From a virus (lineage: Duplodnaviria; Heunggongvirae; Uroviricota; Caudoviricetes): a stretch of DNA of 25,804 nucleotides. The notes beneath the pieces are model-generated. The model was not told the DNA's origin, did no database searches, and saw only the letters and a program-made list of their open reading frames with translations. A program made the position numbers and the translations under genes. Where the stretch lies: the IMG/VR virus record IMGVR_UViG_2897352509_000001; one strand, 5' to 3'. Position 1 is the stretch's first letter, and each line of letters begins with the position of its first letter. Of the stretch, positions 1-10,346 are shown one piece after another.

Positions 1-912
1 TTACACATCATTAGTACCTTCCTTATTTTTTGACTGGGACAAATTTGGGACCGATGGGTTCAGGATCGAGTCTATTTGCCGTGCGTGTTCGGTAAGGTGA
101 TTAGGTGCAAGGTGAGCATATCGACGAACCATTTCGATAGACTCCCAGCCTCCCATTTCCTGTAACACTGACAACGGGACTCCGGCTTGAACCAGCCAAC
201 TTGCCCAGGTGTGTCTCAAGTCGTGAAATCTGAAATCATCAATACCAGCCCGTCTCAGCGCCGCTTTCCAGGCTGTGTTTGCGTCATACCGCATCTTCCT
301 TACTGTTGGCGCTTTCGTTCCGTCTGGTTTGGTACAGCTTTCCTTGTACACAAATACCCAACGGTGATGATTCCCGATTTGTTTTTTCAATACGCGACAT
401 GCAGTATCATTCAGCGCAACGCCAATTGCGCGGTTTGATTTACTCTCTTCCGGGTTTATCCATGCCACCCGGCGCTGCATATCTATTTGTTGCCATTCAA
501 GGTTGATGATGTTCGAGCGTCTTAAACCTGTTGCCAGTGCAAATTCAACAACAGACTTTAATGGCTCCGGACATTCATCAATCAGCCTTTGTGCTTCATG
601 GGGCTCCAGCCAGCGGATCCGTTTATTCTTTGGTTGAGGCACTTTAAGGAAGGTGCGAATAAGCGGGGAAATTCTTCTCGGCTGACTCAGCTTAGCAGGG
701 CCTTTATAAATGAAAGATGCGTAGCCTTCGTTGCAACGGACGCTGGTTTTGGCGTGTATTCTGGAACAGGTTTCCCTTTTTTTCTGCATGCTTCTGCCCT
801 GAGTTTCCAGTTTTCCTCATGACGCCGGTTCGTCATTTTCTGCATTGCTGAATAAATTTTTGATTCAGTAATGTCTCTTAGTTGCATTCCTGCGAAATGT
901 TGAAGCCAGAAT
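1..912 (-). pseudogene. int: Tyrosine integrase remnant (phage-21/DLP12 IntD-like), N-terminally deleted and frameshifted
   Basis: ORF 1..789 encodes the catalytic C-terminal domain ([15 protein letters not shown] ... VRRYAHL). The upstream integrase segment (IGFWLQHFAGMQLRDITESKIYSAMQKMTNRR) lies in another frame in ORF 687..974, so there is a frameshift near 645-693. The first 20 codons of ORF 687..974 are lambda N DNA read out of frame, so the integrase N-terminal arm-binding part is deleted. Confidence 0.75.
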
Positions 913-977: not shown

Positions 978-1132
978 TCTGGATTCTCCTGTTAGTTAGC
1001 TTTGGTTGTGTGTGGGAGTCGTAGTCCTGAACGAAAACACCCCGCAATGGCACATTGGCTGCTAATCCGGATTCGCACTTCCGGCCAATGCTTCGTTTCG
1101 TATCACACACACCAAAGCCTTCTGCTTTGAAT

Positions 1133-1168
1133 GCTGCCCTTCTTCAGGGCTTAATTTTTAAGAGCATC
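1133..1168 (-). promoter_or_regulatory. nutL (boxA plus boxB hairpin GCCCTGAAGAAGGGC)
   Basis: Reverse complement of 1133-1168 reads GATGCTCTTAAAAATTAAGCCCTGAAGAAGGGCAGC, which matches lambda nutL boxA/boxB as recalled. Confidence 0.7.
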
Positions 1169-1204
1169 ACCTTCATGGTGGTTAGTGCGTCCTGCTGATG
1201 TGCT

Positions 1205-1268
1205 TAGTATCACCGCTAGTGGTATTTGTGTCAACACCGCCAGAGATAATTTATCACCGCAGATGGTT
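1205..1268 (-). promoter_or_regulatory. OL1-OL2-OL3 operators with leftward PL promoter
   Basis: Three 17-bp lambda-type operator sites: tatcaccgctagtggta (1208-1224), caacaccgccagagata (1232-1248), tatcaccgcagatggtt (1252-1268). A -35 TTGACA and -10 GATACT are present on the minus strand. Confidence 0.8.
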
Positions 1269-1436
1269 ATCTGTATGTTTTTTATATAGATTTATTTTTT
1301 GCAGGGTTGTGTGGCTTGGGAGGTGATCGAGAGATCAGAATTGCGTTGTTTAGTGAGTTGCACCTATTAATTTTAAAATAAATACAATTGGTTATGAACC
1401 GCCCCGGGTTTCCTGGAGAGTGTTTTATCTGTGAAC

Positions 1437-2327
1437 TCAGGCTGCCAGATCATCGTTTCCGATGGAAGCATAATAAGCTTTTTCTGCTTCTGCCGGAGGA
1501 GTATGGCCCAGCCTTCCCAGCAATCGTCGATTGTTATACCAGTCCACCCACGTTAGTGTGGCCAGTTCCACTTCTGCACGGTTTTTCCAGCTCTTACGGT
1601 GTATTACCTCCGCTTTGTAAAGACCATTGATGCTCTCAGCCATCGCGTTGTCATACGAGTCGCCTGTACTCCCTGTTGATGCCAGTAATCCGGCTTCTTT
1701 TAGTCGCTCCGTATAGGCCAGTGACACATACTGAGAGCCTTTATCGCTGTGATGGATGGTGCCAGACGGACGACGGGCCCACAACGCCTGCTCCAGCGCA
1801 TCCAGCACGAATGTCGTTTCCATAGACGATGAGACCCGCCACCCCACGATGTATCCGGCAAACACATCAATGATAAACGCCACATAGACGAAGCCCTGCC
1901 ATGTGCTGACGTAAGTAAAATCAGCCACCCACAGCTGGTCAGGTCGTTCTGCCACGAACTGACGGTTTACGCGGTCGCCTGCGGCAACGGCTTTCCGGCT
2001 GATGGTCGTACGGACCTTTTTACCCCGGAGAACACCGGCAAGTCCCATAACCGCCATGAGACGTGCCACTGTACATCTGGCCACCCTGATTCCTTCCCGT
2101 AACAACTGACGCCAGACTTTACGCACACCGTACACCTGATGATTTTCATCGTATACGCGCTGTATCTCTCTCTTCAGCCAGTCGTCGTGCTGCGCACGGG
2201 CACTGCGTTTATCCGGATGATGTCGCTGTTGCTGACAATGGTAATACGTTGACGGGGCAATATGCAGTTCGCTGCATACCGGTCCGACCCCGTACTGCTC
2301 ACGCAGCTTATCCAGCAGTGGCATCAT
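1437..2327 (-). CDS. IS3-family transposase OrfB (DDE catalytic domain), expressed as OrfAB by -1 frameshifting
   Basis: 296-aa ORF with an integrase-core DDE region (…WVADFTYV…HSDKGSQY…[15 protein letters not shown]…). It overlaps the OrfA end in the -1 frame. Confidence 0.85.
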
Positions 2328-2650
2328 TTTTTCCAGAGGCGGTCGAACTCCGCCTTCGCAAAATAAGCGGAAGCCTGGCGAAGGATATCGTTACTGCGGC
2401 GCAGTTCACGATTTTCACGTTCCAGCTCTTTCAGACGCTGACGTTCAGCGCTGGTGAGCCCACCATCACCGCCCCCGGTATCCCGCTCATGCTGGCGAAC
2501 CCAGACACGCAGAGTCTCCGGCGTACAGCCAATCTTTGGGGCAATGGAACAAATTGCCGCCCACTGTGAGTCATATTCATCCTGACTTTCCAGAACCATA
2601 CGAATCGCCCGCTGACGGACTTCGGGGGAAAAACGAGTATTTTTAGTCAT
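2324..2650 (-). CDS. IS3-family transposase OrfA (helix-turn-helix / leucine-zipper part)
   Basis: 108-aa [18 protein letters not shown]...RLWKK, matching IS629 OrfA as recalled. It ends in an A6 run where a -1 shift enters the OrfB frame. Confidence 0.85.
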
Positions 2651-2704
2651 CCTGTTTACCTCTTTCTCAGGGAGTTTAGTCTCCAGGATTTCCGGGGCGG
2701 TTCA

Positions 2705-3059
2705 TTATGGCTGTTTTTCGAGTTTTTCTTAACTCTTCATGCAGCTCCGTTCTCAGAATATATGATTTTTCGAGTTTGAAATTCTTGCGACCAGGCGTCT
2801 TATTGCCAGGCTCAGGAAGTGGAAGGCGTGTTTGAATGTCGAGTGGTGGACAGTCATAGAAGTAAATTCTATAAAGCTCAAGCGGTTCCCTACGTTCTTG
2901 TGATTGACGTTTTCCATTAAGATGGGAAAGAACCATTGACCATATTACTTTCATTATGCATTGCGCAGTCAGTTCATGCTCGGCGAAGTGTTTACGATGC
3001 GTAGCATGAACACGCTGCATGAAAAAACCCGCATCAATTAAAATTGCTGCTTTCTTCAT
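2705..3059 (-). pseudogene. Accessory gene at the rexAB position of the immunity region, 3' end cut by the IS629 insertion; possible PIN/NYN-like fold
   Basis: ORF 2676..3059 starts MKKAAILIDAGFF... and its last residues read into the IS terminus. Joining the flanks across the IS restores a roughly 150-codon ORF. It is not RexA or RexB. The PIN/NYN assignment rests only on the N-terminal strand and is weak. Confidence 0.5.
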
Positions 3060-3070
3060 AAGAGTCCCAA

Positions 3071-3135
3071 AAAAATAGCCCAGAGCCGTTATGCAGATAT
3101 TAACAATTGTCTGCGAACGGGGCTGGGCTTGGTTT
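3071..3135 (-). terminator. Candidate intrinsic terminator downstream of cI (imperfect hairpin followed by a T-run on the minus strand)
   Basis: Inverted repeat CCGTTATGCAGA...TCTGCGAACGG with flanking CCCAG/CTGGG; plus-strand A7 at 3071-3077 gives a U-run after the hairpin on the minus strand. Confidence 0.35.
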
Positions 3136-3186
3136 AATTAATCTATGCCAAGTTGACTGTGCCGTCAACATAAAACTTACTTCCTA

Positions 3187-3903
<717 letters not shown>

Positions 3904-3910
3904 TTAAATC

Positions 3911-3974
3911 TATCACCGCAAGGGATAAATATCTAACACCGCGCGTGTTGACTGCTTTACCTCTGGCGGTGATA
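3911..3974. promoter_or_regulatory. OR3-OR2-OR1 operators with divergent PRM and PR promoters
   Basis: tatcaccgcaagggata (3911-3927), taacaccgcgcgtgttg (3934-3950), tacctctggcggtgata (3958-3974). PR -35 TTGACT and -10 GATAAT lie upstream of cro. Confidence 0.9.
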
Positions 3975-3991
3975 ATGGTTGCATGTACTAA

Positions 3992-4201
<210 letters not shown>

Positions 4202-4209
4202 ATAACCCC

Positions 4210-4241
4210 GCTCTTACACATTCCAGCCCTGAAAAAGGGCA
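4210..4241 (+). promoter_or_regulatory. nutR (boxA CGCTCTTAC plus boxB hairpin AGCCCTGAAAAAGGGCA)
   Basis: Exact lambda nutR elements as recalled, between cro and cII. Confidence 0.8.
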
Positions 4242-4319
4242 TCCAATTAAACCACACCTATGGTGTATGCATTTATTTGCATACATTCAATCAATTGTTA
4301 TCTAAGGAAATACTTACAT

Positions 4320-4645: not shown

Positions 4646-5568
4646 ATGACAAATACAGCAAAAATACTCAACTTCGGCAGAGGTAACTTTGCCGGACAGG
4701 AGCGTAATGTGGCAGATCTCGATGATGGTTACGCCAGACTATCAAATATGCTGCTTGAGGCTTATTCGGGCGCAGATCTGACCAAGCGACAGTTTAAAGT
4801 GCTGCTTGCCATTCTGCGTAAAACCTATGGGTGGAATAAACCAATGGACAGAATCACCGATTCTCAACTTAGCGAGATTACAAAGTTACCTGTCAAACGG
4901 TGCAATGAAGCCAAGTTAGAACTCGTCAGAATGAATATTATCAAGCAGCAAGGCGGCATGTTTGGACCAAATAAAAACATCTCAGAATGGTGTATCCCTC
5001 AAAACGAGGGAAAATCCCCTAAAACGAGGGATAAAACATCCCTCAAATTGGGGGATTGCTATCCCTCAAATTGGGGGATTGCTATCCCTCAAAACAGGGG
5101 GACACAAAAGACACTATTACAAAAGAAAAAAGAAAAGATTATTCGTCCGAGAATTCTGGCGAATCCTCTGACCAGCCAGAAAACGATCTTTCTGTGGTTA
5201 AACCGGATGCTGCAATTCAGAGCGGCAGCAAGTGGGGAACAGCAGAAGACCTGACCGCCGCAGAGTGGATGTTTGACATGGTGAAGACCATCGCGCCATC
5301 AGCCAGAAAACCGAATTTTGCTGGGTGGGCTAACGATATCCGCCTGATGCGTGAACGTGACGGACGTAACCACCGCGATATGTGTGTGCTTTTCCGCTGG
5401 GCCTGCCAGGACAACTTCTGGTCCGGTAACGTGCTGAGTCCGGCCAAACTCCGCGACAAGTGGACCCAGCTCGAAATCAACCGTAACAAGCAACAGGCAG
5501 GCGTGACAGCCAGCAAACCAAAACTCGACCTGACAAACACTGACTGGATTTACGGGGTGGATTTATGA
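4646..5568 (+). pseudogene. O: Replication initiator O, frameshifted by a 23-bp duplication of one ori iteron
   Basis: The N-terminal part (ORF 4646..5254) and the C-terminal part (ORF 5056..5568, ...WIYGVDL) are in different frames. The switch falls exactly where the 23-bp unit atccctcaaattgggggattgct occurs twice in tandem (5038-5060 and 5061-5083). The total span is 23 bp longer than the 900-bp lambda O as recalled. Confidence 0.75.
4994..5100 (+). repeat. Lambda-type replication origin iterons, five copies instead of the four recalled for lambda, followed by an AT-rich stretch
   Basis: Direct repeats of ATCCCTCAAAAC/ATTG-GGGG type at 4994, 5014, 5038, 5061 and 5084; the third and fourth are identical 23-bp units. 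Confidence 0.8.
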
Positions 5569-5876
5569 AAAACATCGCCGCACAGATGGTTAACTTTGAC
5601 CGTGAGCAGATGCGTCGGATCGCCAACATCGATAACCAGGACATGACGATATCGGTCTGGGTCTTTCCTGATACTGATATTTCAGATGTATCGCGTGAGT
5701 TAATTGCGGCAATTAAACAGGGGTATCTAACAGTAAAAGCCGCCGGGGTATGGGCGGGGGGCATTGAAACACCTTCGGTGGAAACTCCATCGGAAGGCTC
5801 TAAATTTTTTGGTTTTGATATGGATAACGAATTCATCAGTGGTTTTGATGTAGGGGCATGGGGAGTATTACTCTGA
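5565..5876 (+). CDS. Chimeric ORF: first 21 codons of replication protein P fused by deletion to the C-terminal end of a tail/baseplate protein
   Basis: [21 protein letters not shown] is the lambda P N-terminus; the sequence diverges at about 5628 into unrelated tail-module coding sequence. Its stop overlaps the next start (TGATG). Confidence 0.6.
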
Positions 5877-6670
5877 TGGCGAAAAATGACTTTAAAGCGT
5901 TTGCAACTGATCGAAATGCCAATGTTATGTCGCAGGAGGAATGGGAAGCGTTGCCTGCGCTTATATCCGGATTTACAGCAGGGAAAGCATCCAGTGCGCA
6001 AGTCAATAAGGTTATTCGGCAGGCCAGCTTTATTGCTGCAGCTCTGGCCCAGTTTGTAAGTGATAAAACGCAACGGGATGTGCTTGATAATGGTGATCTG
6101 CCCGGTTGGCACGACCAGCTGCTTACCGCGCTTCGTGCGCTGCTGTTAAGCCGCAAGAATCCGTTTGGCGATATCAAATCGGATGGCACGGTGAAAACGG
6201 CTCTCGAAAACCTTGGTTTGGGAGAAGGTGCTCCAGCTATTGGCGTTCCGTTCTTCTGGCCGTCCGCTGCAATGCCAAATACTGTAATCGACAGCTGGTC
6301 CTGTATGGTGTTTTTGAAGTTCAACGGCGCGAAATTCTCTGCCACTGATTATCCTGTGCTGGCGAAAGTGTTTCCTTCGCTGGTATTACCTGAAGCCCGC
6401 GGTGATTTCATTCGTATCTGGGATGACGGGCGAGGTGCAGACGGTGGTCGCGAATTATTAAGCTGGCAGGCAGCTACAAACTTTTCTCAGTTTGCCGGGA
6501 ATATAGGCGAAGGTGCGGGACACGCAATTAACTTTCATGATGGCATCGCCGGAAATCAGCCAGGATTTTCACGATTTAATTTCACCAGTAACTCTGTGGG
6601 TGATGGTGTGAATTTTGTTGCAGTCAGACCGCGAAATATTGCATTTAACTTTCTGGTGAGGGCTAAATAA
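5858..6670 (+). CDS. stf: Side tail fibre protein (Mu S / P2 H / e14 StfE-like); the C-terminal part lies inside the invertible segment
   Basis: 270-aa ORF with tail-fibre hallmarks (...[28 protein letters not shown]...). The start may instead be the ATG at 5876, which is coupled to the upstream stop. The Pin crossover site sits inside the ORF at 6204-6226. Confidence 0.75.
6204..6226. repeat. Left recombination site of the Pin invertible segment (gix/pix-like)
   Basis: tcgaaaaccttggtttgggagaa matches the reverse complement of 8059-8084 at 20 of 23 positions, so the two form inverted repeats flanking a ~1.85 kb segment. Confidence 0.7.
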
Positions 6671-7263
6671 TGAAACCTGTTTTTGATGAAAATGGGCTGG
6701 CTACAGTGCCGGGCGATATGCGTTGTTTTTATTATGATGCTGAAACATCTGAGTATACGGGCTGGTCTGATGAATATATTAATACTGGCGTAAGTATGCC
6801 CGCCTGTTCCACTGGTATTGACCCTGGCGAAAACATTCCGGGAAGAGTGGCAGTATTTACAGGTAAGGGATGGAGCCATGAAGAAGACCATCGCAATGAG
6901 ACTGTTTACTCAATCGAAAATGGCGCAGCTGTTACAGTGGATTATATCGGTGCCATCAAAGACGGTTATGTCACGATTTCACCGTTAACGCCATACGATA
7001 AATGGGATGGTGAAAAATGGGTGACAGATACTGAGGCACAACACGGTGCCGCAGTAGAAGCGGCAGAAGCACAGCGCCAGTCACTGATTGATGCAGCAAT
7101 GGCTTCCATCAGTCTGATTCAACTGAAATTGCAGGCCGGACGTAAACTGACGCAGGCAGAAACAACCAGACTTAACGCTGTGCTGGATTACATTGACGCG
7201 GTGACGGCAACAGATACCAGCACCGCGCCGGATGTCATCTGGCCTGAACTGCCGGAGGCGTAG
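6670..7263 (+). CDS. tfa: Tail fibre assembly protein (Tfa / Mu U-like)
   Basis: 197-aa ORF whose start overlaps the stf stop (TAATG). Shares the conserved Tfa C-terminal motif (...LDYIDA...TSTAPDVIWPELPEA) with the inverted copy at 7235-7687. Confidence 0.8.
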   Translation: MKPVFDENGLATVPGDMRCFYYDAETSEYTGWSDEYINTGVSMPACSTGIDPGENIPGRVAVFTGKGWSHEEDHRNETVYSIENGAAVTVDYIGAIKDGYVTISPLTPYDKWDGEKWVTDTEAQHGAAVEAAEAQRQSLIDAAMASISLIQLKLQAGRKLTQAETTRLNAVLDYIDAVTATDTSTAPDVIWPELPEA

Positions 7264-7687
7264 GCCATTCAATATCTGGCGCACTGGAGGTATCAACCAG
7301 TTCCAGTGCGTCCAGATAATCCAGCCACAAATTATATTGCGCCAGTTCCTCACCTTTCAGACGACCAATAGCGGCTTTACCGGGCCATTGCTTACTGTTC
7401 ATGTATTCGTTGGCCTGGTTAATTAGTAGCTGTCTTTCTGATTCAGTAATTTCAATAAGCTCTTCATGCGTGGGTGGAGGAATATCTGCCCACGCAGGCA
7501 GCCCATCATCTCCGGCAATACGGATTTTTCCTTGTGGCGGTTCAGCCATAAACTCACTGATAATATTTTGATTTACTTCCTTAGCGTCTGATAAATCCCA
7601 TCCCTCTGATTTATATTTATCAATCATATCCACAGGGAAAAAAGCATTATGCCTTGCGCTATAAACATATTCGTCCATATAAATCAC
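7235..7687 (-). CDS. Alternative tail fibre assembly protein (Tfa') in inverted orientation
   Basis: 150-aa ORF ending ...LDYLDALELVDTSSAPDIEWPTPPAVQAR, paralogous to the Tfa C-terminus; convergent with tfa as in Mu G, P1 C and e14 P segments. Confidence 0.75.
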   Translation of the reverse strand: MIYMDEYVYSARHNAFFPVDMIDKYKSEGWDLSDAKEVNQNIISEFMAEPPQGKIRIAGDDGLPAWADIPPPTHEELIEITESERQLLINQANEYMNSKQWPGKAAIGRLKGEELAQYNLWLDYLDALELVDTSSAPDIEWPTPPAVQAR

Positions 7688-7698
7688 CCTGAATAAAA

Positions 7699-8058
7699 TT
7701 ACTCACCAACAGCCCACCAACTGTAATTCATCGATACCGTGTCGCTGGTTGATGACGTTCTGTAAGCAGAATTAAAGCCGGTTAACGTTGGGCCTTCTGC
7801 AGTCATCACGAACCCTCGCCCAGCGCCTAAAGGCGCACCGCCATCACCAGAATGAGTAAGCATGGCGCAGTCCGCTTTTTTGGGGAAAGGGATGCTGAAT
7901 GTAATTCTCATTGTTTGCGTCGATAATGTCGGCGTAACCGCACCACGACCATATTGCAGGATTTTCCCGTTGGGTAATTTCATCCATCCATCACCACTGG
8001 CAAAAGAGGCCATGTCCGGTATCTGATTTTCCCCTGTCCCCACATCCCGTTTTGCCGC
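7699..8058 (-). CDS. Alternative tail fibre variable C-terminal segment (Sv'), promoterless in this orientation
   Basis: Minus-strand ORF 7699..8112 encodes a tail-fibre tip-like sequence with no credible start. It would fuse to the constant stf part after inversion. The segment boundary is set at the right recombination site. Confidence 0.6.
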   Translation of the reverse strand, partial: AAKRDVGTGENQIPDMASFASGDGWMKLPNGKILQYGRGAVTPTLSTQTMRITFSIPFPKKADCAMLTHSGDGGAPLGAGRGFVMTAEGPTLTGFNSAYRTSSTSDTVSMNYSWWAVGE

Positions 8059-8084
8059 TTCTCCCAAACCAACGTTTATGAAAA
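8059..8084. repeat. Right recombination site of the Pin invertible segment
   Basis: ttctcccaaaccaacgtttatgaaaa, inverted relative to 6204-6226, lying immediately upstream of pin. Confidence 0.7.
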
Positions 8085-8138
8085 TGCAGAAATAACGAGC
8101 AAATGGCATCATTCCTGCTTTTGTCAGGGGGATCTACC

Positions 8139-9619
<1,481 letters not shown>

Positions 9620-9702
9620 CTAACCCTTTGAATTTACATAGCGCAAAAAGATACCTTTCCTCATAATGTGAGCTAATTTTATGTTTCGTTTGATGATCGG
9701 GT

Positions 9703-9764
9703 CGGTCTCGAAAACCGGAGTAGGGGCAACTCTACCGGGGGTTCAAATCCCCCTCTCTCCGCCA
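9703..9764 (+). other. tRNA-Ser(CGA) 3' fragment (serU-like, anticodon arm to CCA), probable prophage right attachment-site remnant
   Basis: CGGTCTCGAAAACCGGAGTAGGGGCAACTCTACCGGGGGTTCAAATCCCCCTCTCTCCGCCA matches the 3' ~62 nt of E. coli serU as recalled. No complementary 5' acceptor strand (GGAGAGA) occurs upstream, so this is not a complete tRNA. Confidence 0.75.
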
Positions 9765-10346
9765 CTTTATCAATGACTTATCTCCCGACTTCCCGTCTTG
9801 CTTTTCCTAAACAGAACAATCGTAGAATATTCTTGAAGGGTTAGATCGTCACTGTTTTCTGTTCGATACTGTGACATTCAGCACTTGATTCGCTATGGAT
9901 CTGACAGGAAGGTTTTGAGCGAAAATCTGCAGTTATTCAGTCGTTTTCTTATCGGTCACCATTATTCTTTTAGACATTGATCCTACAAAGCTGCCGCAAA
10001 GTTGGTGGTGGGAACTGAAGTTGCGTAGAGAAGGGGTCAATACCCGGAGGCAAACATGGGCTGGCAAAAGTGTAGCGGTATTAGGCGCAGCTATTTAGCC
10101 TAGTTATGTTTTATGAAAACTTGATATCATATAAGTGTCTTACTTATTGGCTGTAAATAAGTTTTTCCTAAGGAATTGTTTCTTGAGTATCATTTGTAAC
10201 TGTAACGGAATTTATAATCCTTTGCTTTATTGTTACGGTATTTTTTATCACACCCTATTTTTAGTGGTTTTTTATACTGAAGTTTGGCAAAGTGAACTTT
10301 ATATACATATACTTCATCCTGGTTTCAGTTAAATTGGGGGGATGAT

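Follow-up and report, generated by a model that had tools for sequence, protein, structure and literature searches.

A deletion-truncated NYN gene beside cI in the O157:H7 prophage Sp1 and the leader RNA of its intact relatives

The slot directly downstream of the repressor gene cI is known in lambdoid phages to hold exclusion and defence cargo, for example BstA of the Salmonella phage BTP1 (PMC8585504), and in lambda it is occupied by rexA and rexB. We analysed this slot in a 25,804-nucleotide stretch of DNA (IMG/VR record IMGVR_UViG_2897352509_000001, here called the window), which represents the lambda-like cryptic prophage Sp1 (CP-933H) of Escherichia coli O157:H7, located at the tRNA-Thr gene thrW with the P4-like Sp2 next to it. 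The open reading frame (ORF) found there is almost certainly a NYN gene truncated by a deletion. Its intact relatives are predicted ribonucleases (RNases) encoded behind a promoter and a structured leader RNA, an arrangement similar to type III toxin-antitoxin systems (ToxIN, AbiQ/antiQ). Both comprise a promoter, a structured non-coding RNA, an intrinsic terminator and an endoribonuclease gene (predicted in the present case), and both reside on mobile elements with a single protein gene. In contrast to type III systems, the unit described here has a single hairpin instead of a tandem-repeat RNA, and its protein has the NYN fold and not that of ToxN or AbiQ.

Like rexA-rexB and bstA in their phages, the Sp1 ORF follows cI on the same strand, before OL/PL is reached, and is an accessory gene of the kind dispensable for phage growth. 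The first-pass annotation of this DNA had placed the ORF in the rexAB slot between cI and OL/PL and called it unrelated to Rex. This is correct: the ORF matches PHROG 5783 and the NYN family, not RexA or RexB, and shares position alone with them. In lambda lysogens, rexB is annotated where DNA similarity to the window resumes. Unlike rexAB, with which no sequence or fold relation exists, the unit consists of one gene rather than two, encodes when intact a predicted soluble nuclease rather than a membrane-channel system, and has its own promoter and RNA leader. Taken by itself, the Sp1 remnant has nothing remarkable about it; what deserves attention is the undescribed unit of leader RNA and NYN gene to which it led.

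A truncated NYN gene in the rex slot

The coding part of the locus comprises the following features.
2676–3059, minus strand: present ORF of 127 codons with an ATG start (MKKAAILIDAGFF), between cI and PL/OL
2709–3059, minus strand: native codons 1–117 of the NYN gene, from alignment to phage ev099

The present ORF is composed of 117 native NYN codons, one codon formed at a deletion joint and nine codons contributed by the end of an IS629 element, followed by TAA. Over 1246 nt comprising cI, the leader and the native NYN codons, the window shows 99.8% DNA identity to ev099. Residues 1–118 of the ORF match positions 1–109 of the 246-position profile of PHROG 5783, and as the match is confined to this part, the ORF was recognised as a fragment. 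The 154-residue sequence obtained by joining the flanks of the IS element, which holds all 117 native codons, yielded no Pfam family even at E ≤ 10, because the region that matches NYN lies in the deleted half; the NYN identity was thus revealed only by a full-length homologue. Intact homologues in other lambdoid phages, a search for which had been proposed in the first-pass annotation, do exist (ev099, 2B8, Stx2a phages) and have a conserved, predicted NYN fold.

The full-length gene was found by tblastn in phages ev099 (gp48) and 2B8, both with a lambda-type cI. It has 858 bp, encodes 285 amino acids, occupies the interval between cI and N as the next gene after cI, and is named NYN domain-containing protein in RefSeq. 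Stx2a-converting phages carry an identical 285-residue copy downstream of a different cI and one extra ORF, which encodes 113 amino acids and lies between cI and the NYN unit (L013, 3012–3353). The whole NYN unit of the Stx2a phages, with its promoter and leader, does not differ from that of Sp1 and ev099. An identical unit beside a different cI indicates transfer from one immunity region to another in the manner of a cassette.

The earlier suggestion of a PIN/NYN-like fold was borne out for the intact homologues. The ev099 protein matches the Pfam NYN domain (PF01936) with 36.8 bits at residues 158–205, above the gathering cutoff of 24.2 bits, and the same domain was matched by all 48 aligned family members. 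A protein database search returned 7035 relatives at E ≤ 1e-3, nearly all of 250–300 amino acids. Invariant in the 48-member alignment are D9, D69, R114, K115, R119, W129, H222 and D224, together with the motifs Q160-K161-x-V-D164-x-K166-x-G168-x-D170 and G188-D189-x-D191-F192. An N-terminal Asp, VDxxLxxD and GDxDF are the signature motifs of NYN/LabA proteins. An AlphaFold2 model of the intact protein, built from the family alignment (pLDDT 87.4, pTM 0.80), showed the PIN-like alpha/beta fold, which thus applies to the intact homologue only and as a prediction. Its top match in the Protein Data Bank (PDB) by Foldseek was the NYN domain of MARF1 (5yaa; probability 1.0, TM 0.67 on the target), and the best viral structural matches were LabA-like/DUF88 and NYN proteins; neither a sequence nor a profile search of the PDB produced a meaningful match for the family. 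The intact protein is accordingly predicted to be a LabA-like, metal-dependent ribonuclease with a PIN-like NYN domain. With the NYN/LabA-like proteins (DUF88, PF01936) it shares the Pfam threshold, the signature Asp motifs and the MARF1-like model. In contrast to minimal NYN domains, it carries about 90 extra residues between strand 2 and the VD motif, with invariant positions of their own (P71, P72, R114, K115, R119, W129), and a basic disordered C-terminal tail. The family is a distinct NYN/LabA subfamily with a large insertion.

The Sp1 stump retains D9 and D69, whereas every residue from 118 onward is missing. Of the active-site motifs only D9 is kept in the window copy; D164, D170, D189 and D191 are absent. 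Since all these residues are lacking, the stump can no longer be a NYN nuclease, and the locus is a decaying remnant or pseudogene, though with promoter and leader RNA still intact. One could suppose that the stump has been kept for a function, as a regulatory or dominant-negative N-terminal fragment, or that promoter and leader persist as a stand-alone small RNA. Promoter, leader and codons 1–117 are almost unchanged relative to ev099, the leader scores on a par with intact copies, and the ORF (up to 117 native codons) is open in the three Sp1 deletion alleles that were translated or annotated (127, 129 and 154 amino acids). We nevertheless consider such a function very unlikely, as the near-identity reflects recency and not constraint, the C-terminal tails vary by allele (10, 12 or 37 junk residues) with some alleles losing more native codons, and the rest of the prophage is decaying, with N, O and P broken.

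Deletion, IS629 and junction alleles

The insertion and the DNA beyond it comprise the following features.
1395–2704, minus strand: IS629/IS1203 (IS3 family), 1310 bp, with terminal inverted repeats (TGAACCGCCCCGG)
2324–2650, minus strand: IS629 orfA
1437–2327, minus strand: IS629 orfB
2253–2369, in IS629: IS3 frameshift pseudoknot (Rfam ALIL, 121.5 bits)
1392–1394: left copy of the TTA target-site duplication
2705–2707: right copy of the TTA target-site duplication
1282–1391, minus strand: non-coding DNA, read as codons 118–154 in the first-pass annotation and homologous to ev099 from 63 bp past the NYN stop

The IS3 family is characterised by a length of about 1.3 kb, imperfect TG...CA inverted repeats, orfA and orfB joined by a -1 frameshift, and a 3-bp target duplication. 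The element, labelled 'IS3-like element IS1203 family transposase' in RefSeq, agrees with this in its size, matching inverted repeats, two ORFs, frameshift pseudoknot and TTA duplication. An allele free of the IS and with a single TTA occurs in five O157 genomes (AR-0427, 147, 148, 149 and CEC13091) and corresponds exactly to the joined flanks (100% identity over a 200-nt query), which identifies TTA as a genuine target duplication or, equivalently, as a precise-excision site. The IS629-like element and the TTA duplication noticed at first pass are real.

Joining the flanks without the IS and one TTA gives an ORF of 154 codons, and it had been proposed on this basis that an exclusion gene of about 150 codons was intact until IS629 hit its 3' end, so that removal of the IS would restore it. 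The IS and its duplication are genuine, and the joined ORF exists in the five genomes mentioned above. Alignment to ev099 (locus L001), however, showed two blocks, window 3950–2705 against L001 3110–4355 (99.8%) and window 1396–1100 against L001 4921–5217 (98.3%). According to BLAST, the 565 bp between them (L001 4356–4920) are missing from the window; they comprise the last 503 bp of the NYN gene and 62 bp beyond. The true gene has 285 codons, and codons 118–154 of the joined ORF are non-coding DNA in intact phages, at least 63 bp past the NYN stop. In line with this, the joined product is devoid of family motifs from residue 118 on and of any Pfam match. The alignments to ev099, the Stx2a phages and strain DEC4E refute the idea of a restorable gene, which is almost certainly wrong.

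The deletion joint lies at 2708/2709, 4 nt outside IS629 and its duplication. In gene sense, with a slash at the joint, the window reads ...ACAGCC/ATAA[IS629]TAACCAATTG..., while intact phages have ...ACAGCCTTAAGA... at the left and ...ACACATAACCAATTG... at the right breakpoint. The first-pass statement that IS629 cut the 3' end of the ORF holds insofar as the IS does sit in the ORF; the truncation itself is the 565-bp deletion, which removed residues 118–285 with the invariant QKxVDxKLGxD and GDxDF motifs and hence D164, D170, D189 and D191. Inactivation by the IS can no longer be maintained. The gene was destroyed by the deletion and not by IS629, whatever their order, and the sole effect of IS629 on the ORF was to exchange a 37-codon junk tail for one of 10 codons.

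Comparison of window positions 1392–2708 with six further loci (L003, L004, L015, L016, L018 and L019) revealed several alleles of the Sp1 junction.
Sakai and PA20: ...ACA/CCAATTG, without IS (ECs_0273, 129 amino acids)
PNUSAE151637: ...ACAGCC/AATTG, without IS
Al Ain: ...AAAAAC/AATTG, without IS
Z1504: inverted IS629 without duplication
DEC4E: 156-bp deletion only, residues 1–256 retained and fused to the same junk tail

Strain RM19259 has two IS copies at the junction, and the IS-containing allele of the window is present in 59 complete genomes. At least seven junction states thus exist among O157 genomes: DEC4E, the empty site, IS629 in either orientation, three scars and the two-IS state of RM19259. 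In all Sp1 alleles the right-hand breakpoint is no more than about 8 nt away from the IS site, some strains have lost a few further native codons, and the IS-free scars show 0–2 nt of microhomology. The IEE protein of O157 is described as promoting imprecise, microhomology-mediated excisions and deletions of IS629 (PMC9943667). The Sp1 alleles look as if IEE-type excisions and deletions had taken place repeatedly at a hotspot of IS629. With IS629/IEE events in O157:H7 they have in common a 1310-bp IS3-family element, a 3-bp duplication and several IS-free scars; nothing is unusual here, the only point being that the truncation was not due to the IS copy now present. Two simple routes were rejected for the window allele. 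Deletion by recombination of two IS629 copies predicts ...ACAGCCTTA[IS], whereas the window shows ...ACAGCCATAA[IS], and a simple IS-adjacent deletion conflicts with the 4 nt of distal flank and the intact duplication still present beside the IS. The six Sp1 junction alleles yielded no unique order of deletion and insertion. In the literature, ECs0273 was found only in a table of comparative genomic hybridisation data, as a hypothetical protein. For the window itself, the result is a corrected annotation, a stump disabled by deletion, and the record of an IS629 hotspot with many alleles in this cryptic prophage of O157.

A leader RNA upstream of NYN genes

Between the cI stop (3187) and the ATG (3059), the NYN unit presents a sigma-70 promoter, a hairpin and a U-run, followed by the ORF.
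3140–3168, minus strand: sigma-70-like promoter TTGACG-17 nt-TAGATT, with a predicted start about 5 nt before the hairpin
3069–3132, minus strand: structured RNA leader, from folding and a covariance model
3128–3078, minus strand: 51-nt hairpin with P1 GCCCAG/CUGGGC, P2a CCGUU/AACGG, P2b GCAGA/UCUGC and a 13-nt loop
3077–3069, minus strand: U-run, ending 9 nt before the ATG at 3059

The fold energy of the leader amounts to -25 to -26.5 kcal/mol. Covariance model R2 matched the window at 3070–3132 on the minus strand with 79.8 bits and on the opposite strand with 28.6 bits; such a dominance of the sense strand, shared by both leader subtypes described below, is expected for an RNA. The Sp1 leader scored as well under R2 as intact copies. 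Rfam 15 gave no match in window 1100–4300 at E ≤ 1 besides ALIL in the IS; 10 general-type loci (see below) likewise had no match at the motif. A palindrome (TTGACggcacaGTCAA; 3153–3168, minus strand) overlaps the -35 box of the NYN promoter and might be an operator for an unknown factor. As a TTGAC-N6-9-GTCAA palindrome it recurs in just 8 of 19 gamma-type loci, of enteric type and not in Pseudomonas, and was therefore dismissed as a general operator.

The order promoter, hairpin and NYN gene was also found in Pantoea, Edwardsiella, E. albertii, P. syringae and P. aeruginosa, in unrelated contexts. For a wider survey, 80 loci were taken from species-level genomes of Proteobacteria, Bacteroidota, Acidobacteriota, Elusimicrobia, Spirochaetes, Bacillota and Verrucomicrobia. 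A crude scan, which includes a few doubtful calls, detected a hairpin and U-run upstream of the NYN gene in 73 of 86 loci, typically ending 10–60 nt before the NYN start codon; the leader is counted as directly upstream of the NYN gene in at least 70 of the 86. As RNAalifold on a plain MAFFT alignment gave only 7 pairs with stems out of register, the structure was then specified by hand and covariance models were used. Two subtypes of leader were distinguished, a gamma type, to which the window belongs, and a general type.

The gamma type is represented by 16 distinct sequences from Enterobacterales, Pseudomonas, Acinetobacter and Pasteurella. Pairing was found in 95.7% of cells against 85.4% in shuffles, with none of 500 shuffles reaching the observed value, and slid controls were at most 41% paired. 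Compensatory, two-sided changes were seen in 12 of the 16 pairs, and a TTGAC box precedes the hairpin at a fixed offset in 16 of 19 loci. The general type consists of an 8-bp P1, an internal loop with 5'-CAGUA(A/C) opposite 5'-CGA-N-C, and then P2. Its covariance model R1, built from a seed of 29 sequences, was searched against 594 kb on both strands; the 39 matches at E<1e-10 (ten of them at non-seed loci) all lay on the coding strand just upstream of a NYN start. In the model-based alignment, P1 was 91.7% paired, and 13 of 15 pairs of the whole structure showed two-sided changes. Among 41 sequences the 5' loop bases were conserved as C 33, A 34, G 38, U 40 and A 40, and the 3' loop bases as C 38, G 37, A 41, N and C 36; CAGUA and CGA-N-C are thus near-invariant while the stems co-vary. 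AGUA opposite GA(N) is the signature of the bulged-G (sarcin-ricin/loop E) module, a common protein-recognition element, and the internal loop of the general type resembles this module.

In a scan independent of the protein, viral contigs were searched with a degenerate DNA pattern and the matches scored with the covariance model. Ten true motif matches were obtained, six directly followed by a NYN ORF. At two of the remaining loci the sequence ends too soon, one motif precedes an ORF with a RelA_SpoT domain and one a small Zn-ribbon-like ORF; none of 70 chance pattern matches in viral contigs had a NYN gene. The RelA_SpoT case is viral contig L135, with a general-type motif at 9216–9278 on the plus strand (47.8 bits) and, about 250 nt later, an ORF at 9531–10181 on the plus strand. 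Its 216-residue product carries the RelA_SpoT domain (Pfam 35.1 bits) and resembles a small alarmone synthetase. This hints that the RNA motif may serve other toxin-like effectors besides NYN.

The leader is a new RNA motif, conserved, structured and absent from Rfam, with a clear protein partner, and it is very probably a functional RNA element tied to the NYN family. In a competing view, the hairpin would be no more than an intrinsic terminator or insulator of the ordinary kind, carried along with the gene and not specifically linked to the protein. It fits the GC-rich stem followed by a U-run, the single copy upstream of the unrelated RelA_SpoT gene, and the fact that no alternative anti-terminator fold was seen. 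It does not fit the unpaired bases of internal and hairpin loops, which are near-invariant across phyla while stems co-vary, nor the fixed distance between promoter and hairpin, the members that keep the motif without a good U-run, or the RNA subtype, which changes together with the NYN protein subfamily. We therefore consider an ordinary terminator improbable. The joint change of RNA subtype and protein subfamily, together with the conserved loop bases, suggests that the NYN protein recognises the leader RNA directly.

Genomic contexts, possible role and prophage setting

In the loci examined the NYN unit is always solo, and no conserved protein partner or neighbour was seen. Its contexts are the following.
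Rex (cI–PL) slot: ev099, 2B8, Stx2a phages and Sp1
Between antiterminator Q and holin, on the strand opposite to the neighbours: Edwardsiella and E. albertii
Prophage end: P. syringae
KfrA-bearing plasmid-like element, beside HigBA: P. aeruginosa
Small islets in the chromosome: Pantoea (toxin-antitoxin genes nearby) and Proteus (adjacent to glmS)

These are typical positions of morons and conflict genes. As classic moron slots are combined with the lack of a conserved partner gene, a role in conflict is favoured, and the unit probably acts in exclusion, abortive infection or element maintenance. That it is a defence or exclusion system in the narrower sense seems quite possible, though short of probable. 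A different role would be a housekeeping or regulatory one, in which the RNase processes transcripts of the phage itself to tune lysogeny versus lysis and has no part in conflict. Lambda uses host RNase III in transcript processing, which provides a precedent, and in several phages the gene is indeed a neighbour of cI, while other phages have it between Q and their lysis genes. However, the unit also occurs outside prophages (Proteus by glmS, the Pantoea islet, the Pseudomonas plasmid-like element) and in phyla without lambdoid phages, its position in phages is not fixed, and in the Q–holin slot it runs opposite to its neighbours. A housekeeping role is therefore unlikely.

Taken together, we consider it fairly probable that the Sp1 gene is a NYN stump left by a deletion and that the intact unit is a leader-RNA-controlled RNase in mobile-element conflict. 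In the intact unit, the transcript would begin a few nucleotides before the hairpin, most transcripts would stop at the U-run and yield a short RNA, and read-through past the U-run would give the NYN mRNA, whose product would be an RNase harmful if unchecked. Two versions of control can be envisaged. The leader may act in cis as a terminator or attenuator recognised by the protein, with the RNase binding or cleaving its own leader in an autoregulatory manner; precedents for such control of an enzyme's own mRNA are RNase III, RNase E and, among eukaryotic NYN enzymes, Regnase-1. Alternatively, the leader may be an abundant short RNA that binds the protein, an RNA antitoxin as in type III toxin-antitoxin systems. 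As in these systems, a non-coding RNA with a terminator lies directly upstream of the predicted endoribonuclease gene, and the arrangement is conserved across loci. In either version the unit would serve the mobile element in conflict, by superinfection exclusion, abortive infection or element maintenance.

Several observations speak against this interpretation. A recognisable motif was not found in about 15 of the 86 loci, and the shuffle and slid controls differ from formal covariation tests such as R-scape. The motif copy in front of a RelA_SpoT-domain gene means that the RNA is not strictly NYN-specific. The main function of hairpin and U-run could be to terminate transcription or to stabilise the mRNA, and in this phage transcripts from cI would end there as well. 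Window 2700–3300 contains no tandem repeats, in contrast to known type III antitoxins. Activity, toxicity and a role in defence are all predicted. PADLOC-DB 2.0 gave no full-length defence match for the family but local motif matches only (41–46 residues), namely HEC-09 with E 2e-4 and 'NYN', for which the ev099 protein reached E 1.4e-3 and the best family member 5.3e-6, and NCBIfam only weak local NYN matches; as these matches are weak and local, assignment to a named defence system was dropped. HEC-09, an Hma-embedded NYN candidate, conferred no protection in published tests (Payne et al. 2024, bioRxiv 10.1101/2024.01.29.577857). It was the one NYN defence candidate found with published tests, and it differs in architecture: it shares with the present family the nature of a bacterial NYN protein proposed to be an antiviral RNase with MARF1-like aspartates, whereas the match is local (46 residues) and HEC-09 has an N-terminal HTH-like domain. 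A literature search on NYN proteins in prophage, defence and RNA-antitoxin settings found no study of the present family.

A more far-reaching version, which we regard as rather unlikely though worth stating, is that promoter, hairpin and NYN gene form an undescribed, phylum-spanning RNA-controlled RNase module for toxicity or defence, carried on phages, plasmids and islets. The single 5'-terminal hairpin would neutralise a LabA-type NYN RNase or be its autoregulatory target, a failing supply of the RNA during phage attack would set the unit off, and the Sp1 copy would be a disarmed relic. In any case, the intact family offers a solo NYN RNase, as predicted, with thousands of homologues that occupies the two best-known lambdoid cargo slots, including those of Stx2a phages, and the unit is a testable candidate for an RNA-regulated nuclease module in defence, exclusion or addiction.

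The window was matched with 100% identity near 303 kb in O157:H7 genomes, among them EC4115 and TW14359. The surroundings of the NYN unit comprise the following features.
1–789, minus strand: integrase remnant at the left end of the window
Start at 978, minus strand: lambda N stump of 20 codons (MDAQTRRRERRAEKQAQWKA)
1136–1150: nutL boxB hairpin (GCCCTGAAGAAGGGC), surviving copy
About 1200–1275: PL/OL, lambda-type
1206–1234, minus strand: PL promoter TTGACA-17 nt-GATACT, within the OL operators on the far side of the rex slot
3187–3900, minus strand: repressor gene cI, lambda-type, directly followed on this strand by the NYN unit

The first 20 N codons are fused to the integrase remnant (865–1165), and the PL operon from N to xis is wholly deleted in Sp1. 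Past cI, PR, cro and cII are followed by a frameshifted O gene. This gene belongs to a stretch of further decay (about 4646–9700), in which a truncated P is joined directly to tail-fibre genes. The invertase gene pinE beside them marks an invertible tail-fibre segment, after which a gene with a LEM-3-like GIY-YIG domain is found. In the satellite Sp2 (about 12050–17200), genes named 'ABC-three component system' in RefSeq and an AAA ATPase gene lie between the integrase and delta/psu/sid, the known defence hotspot of P4.

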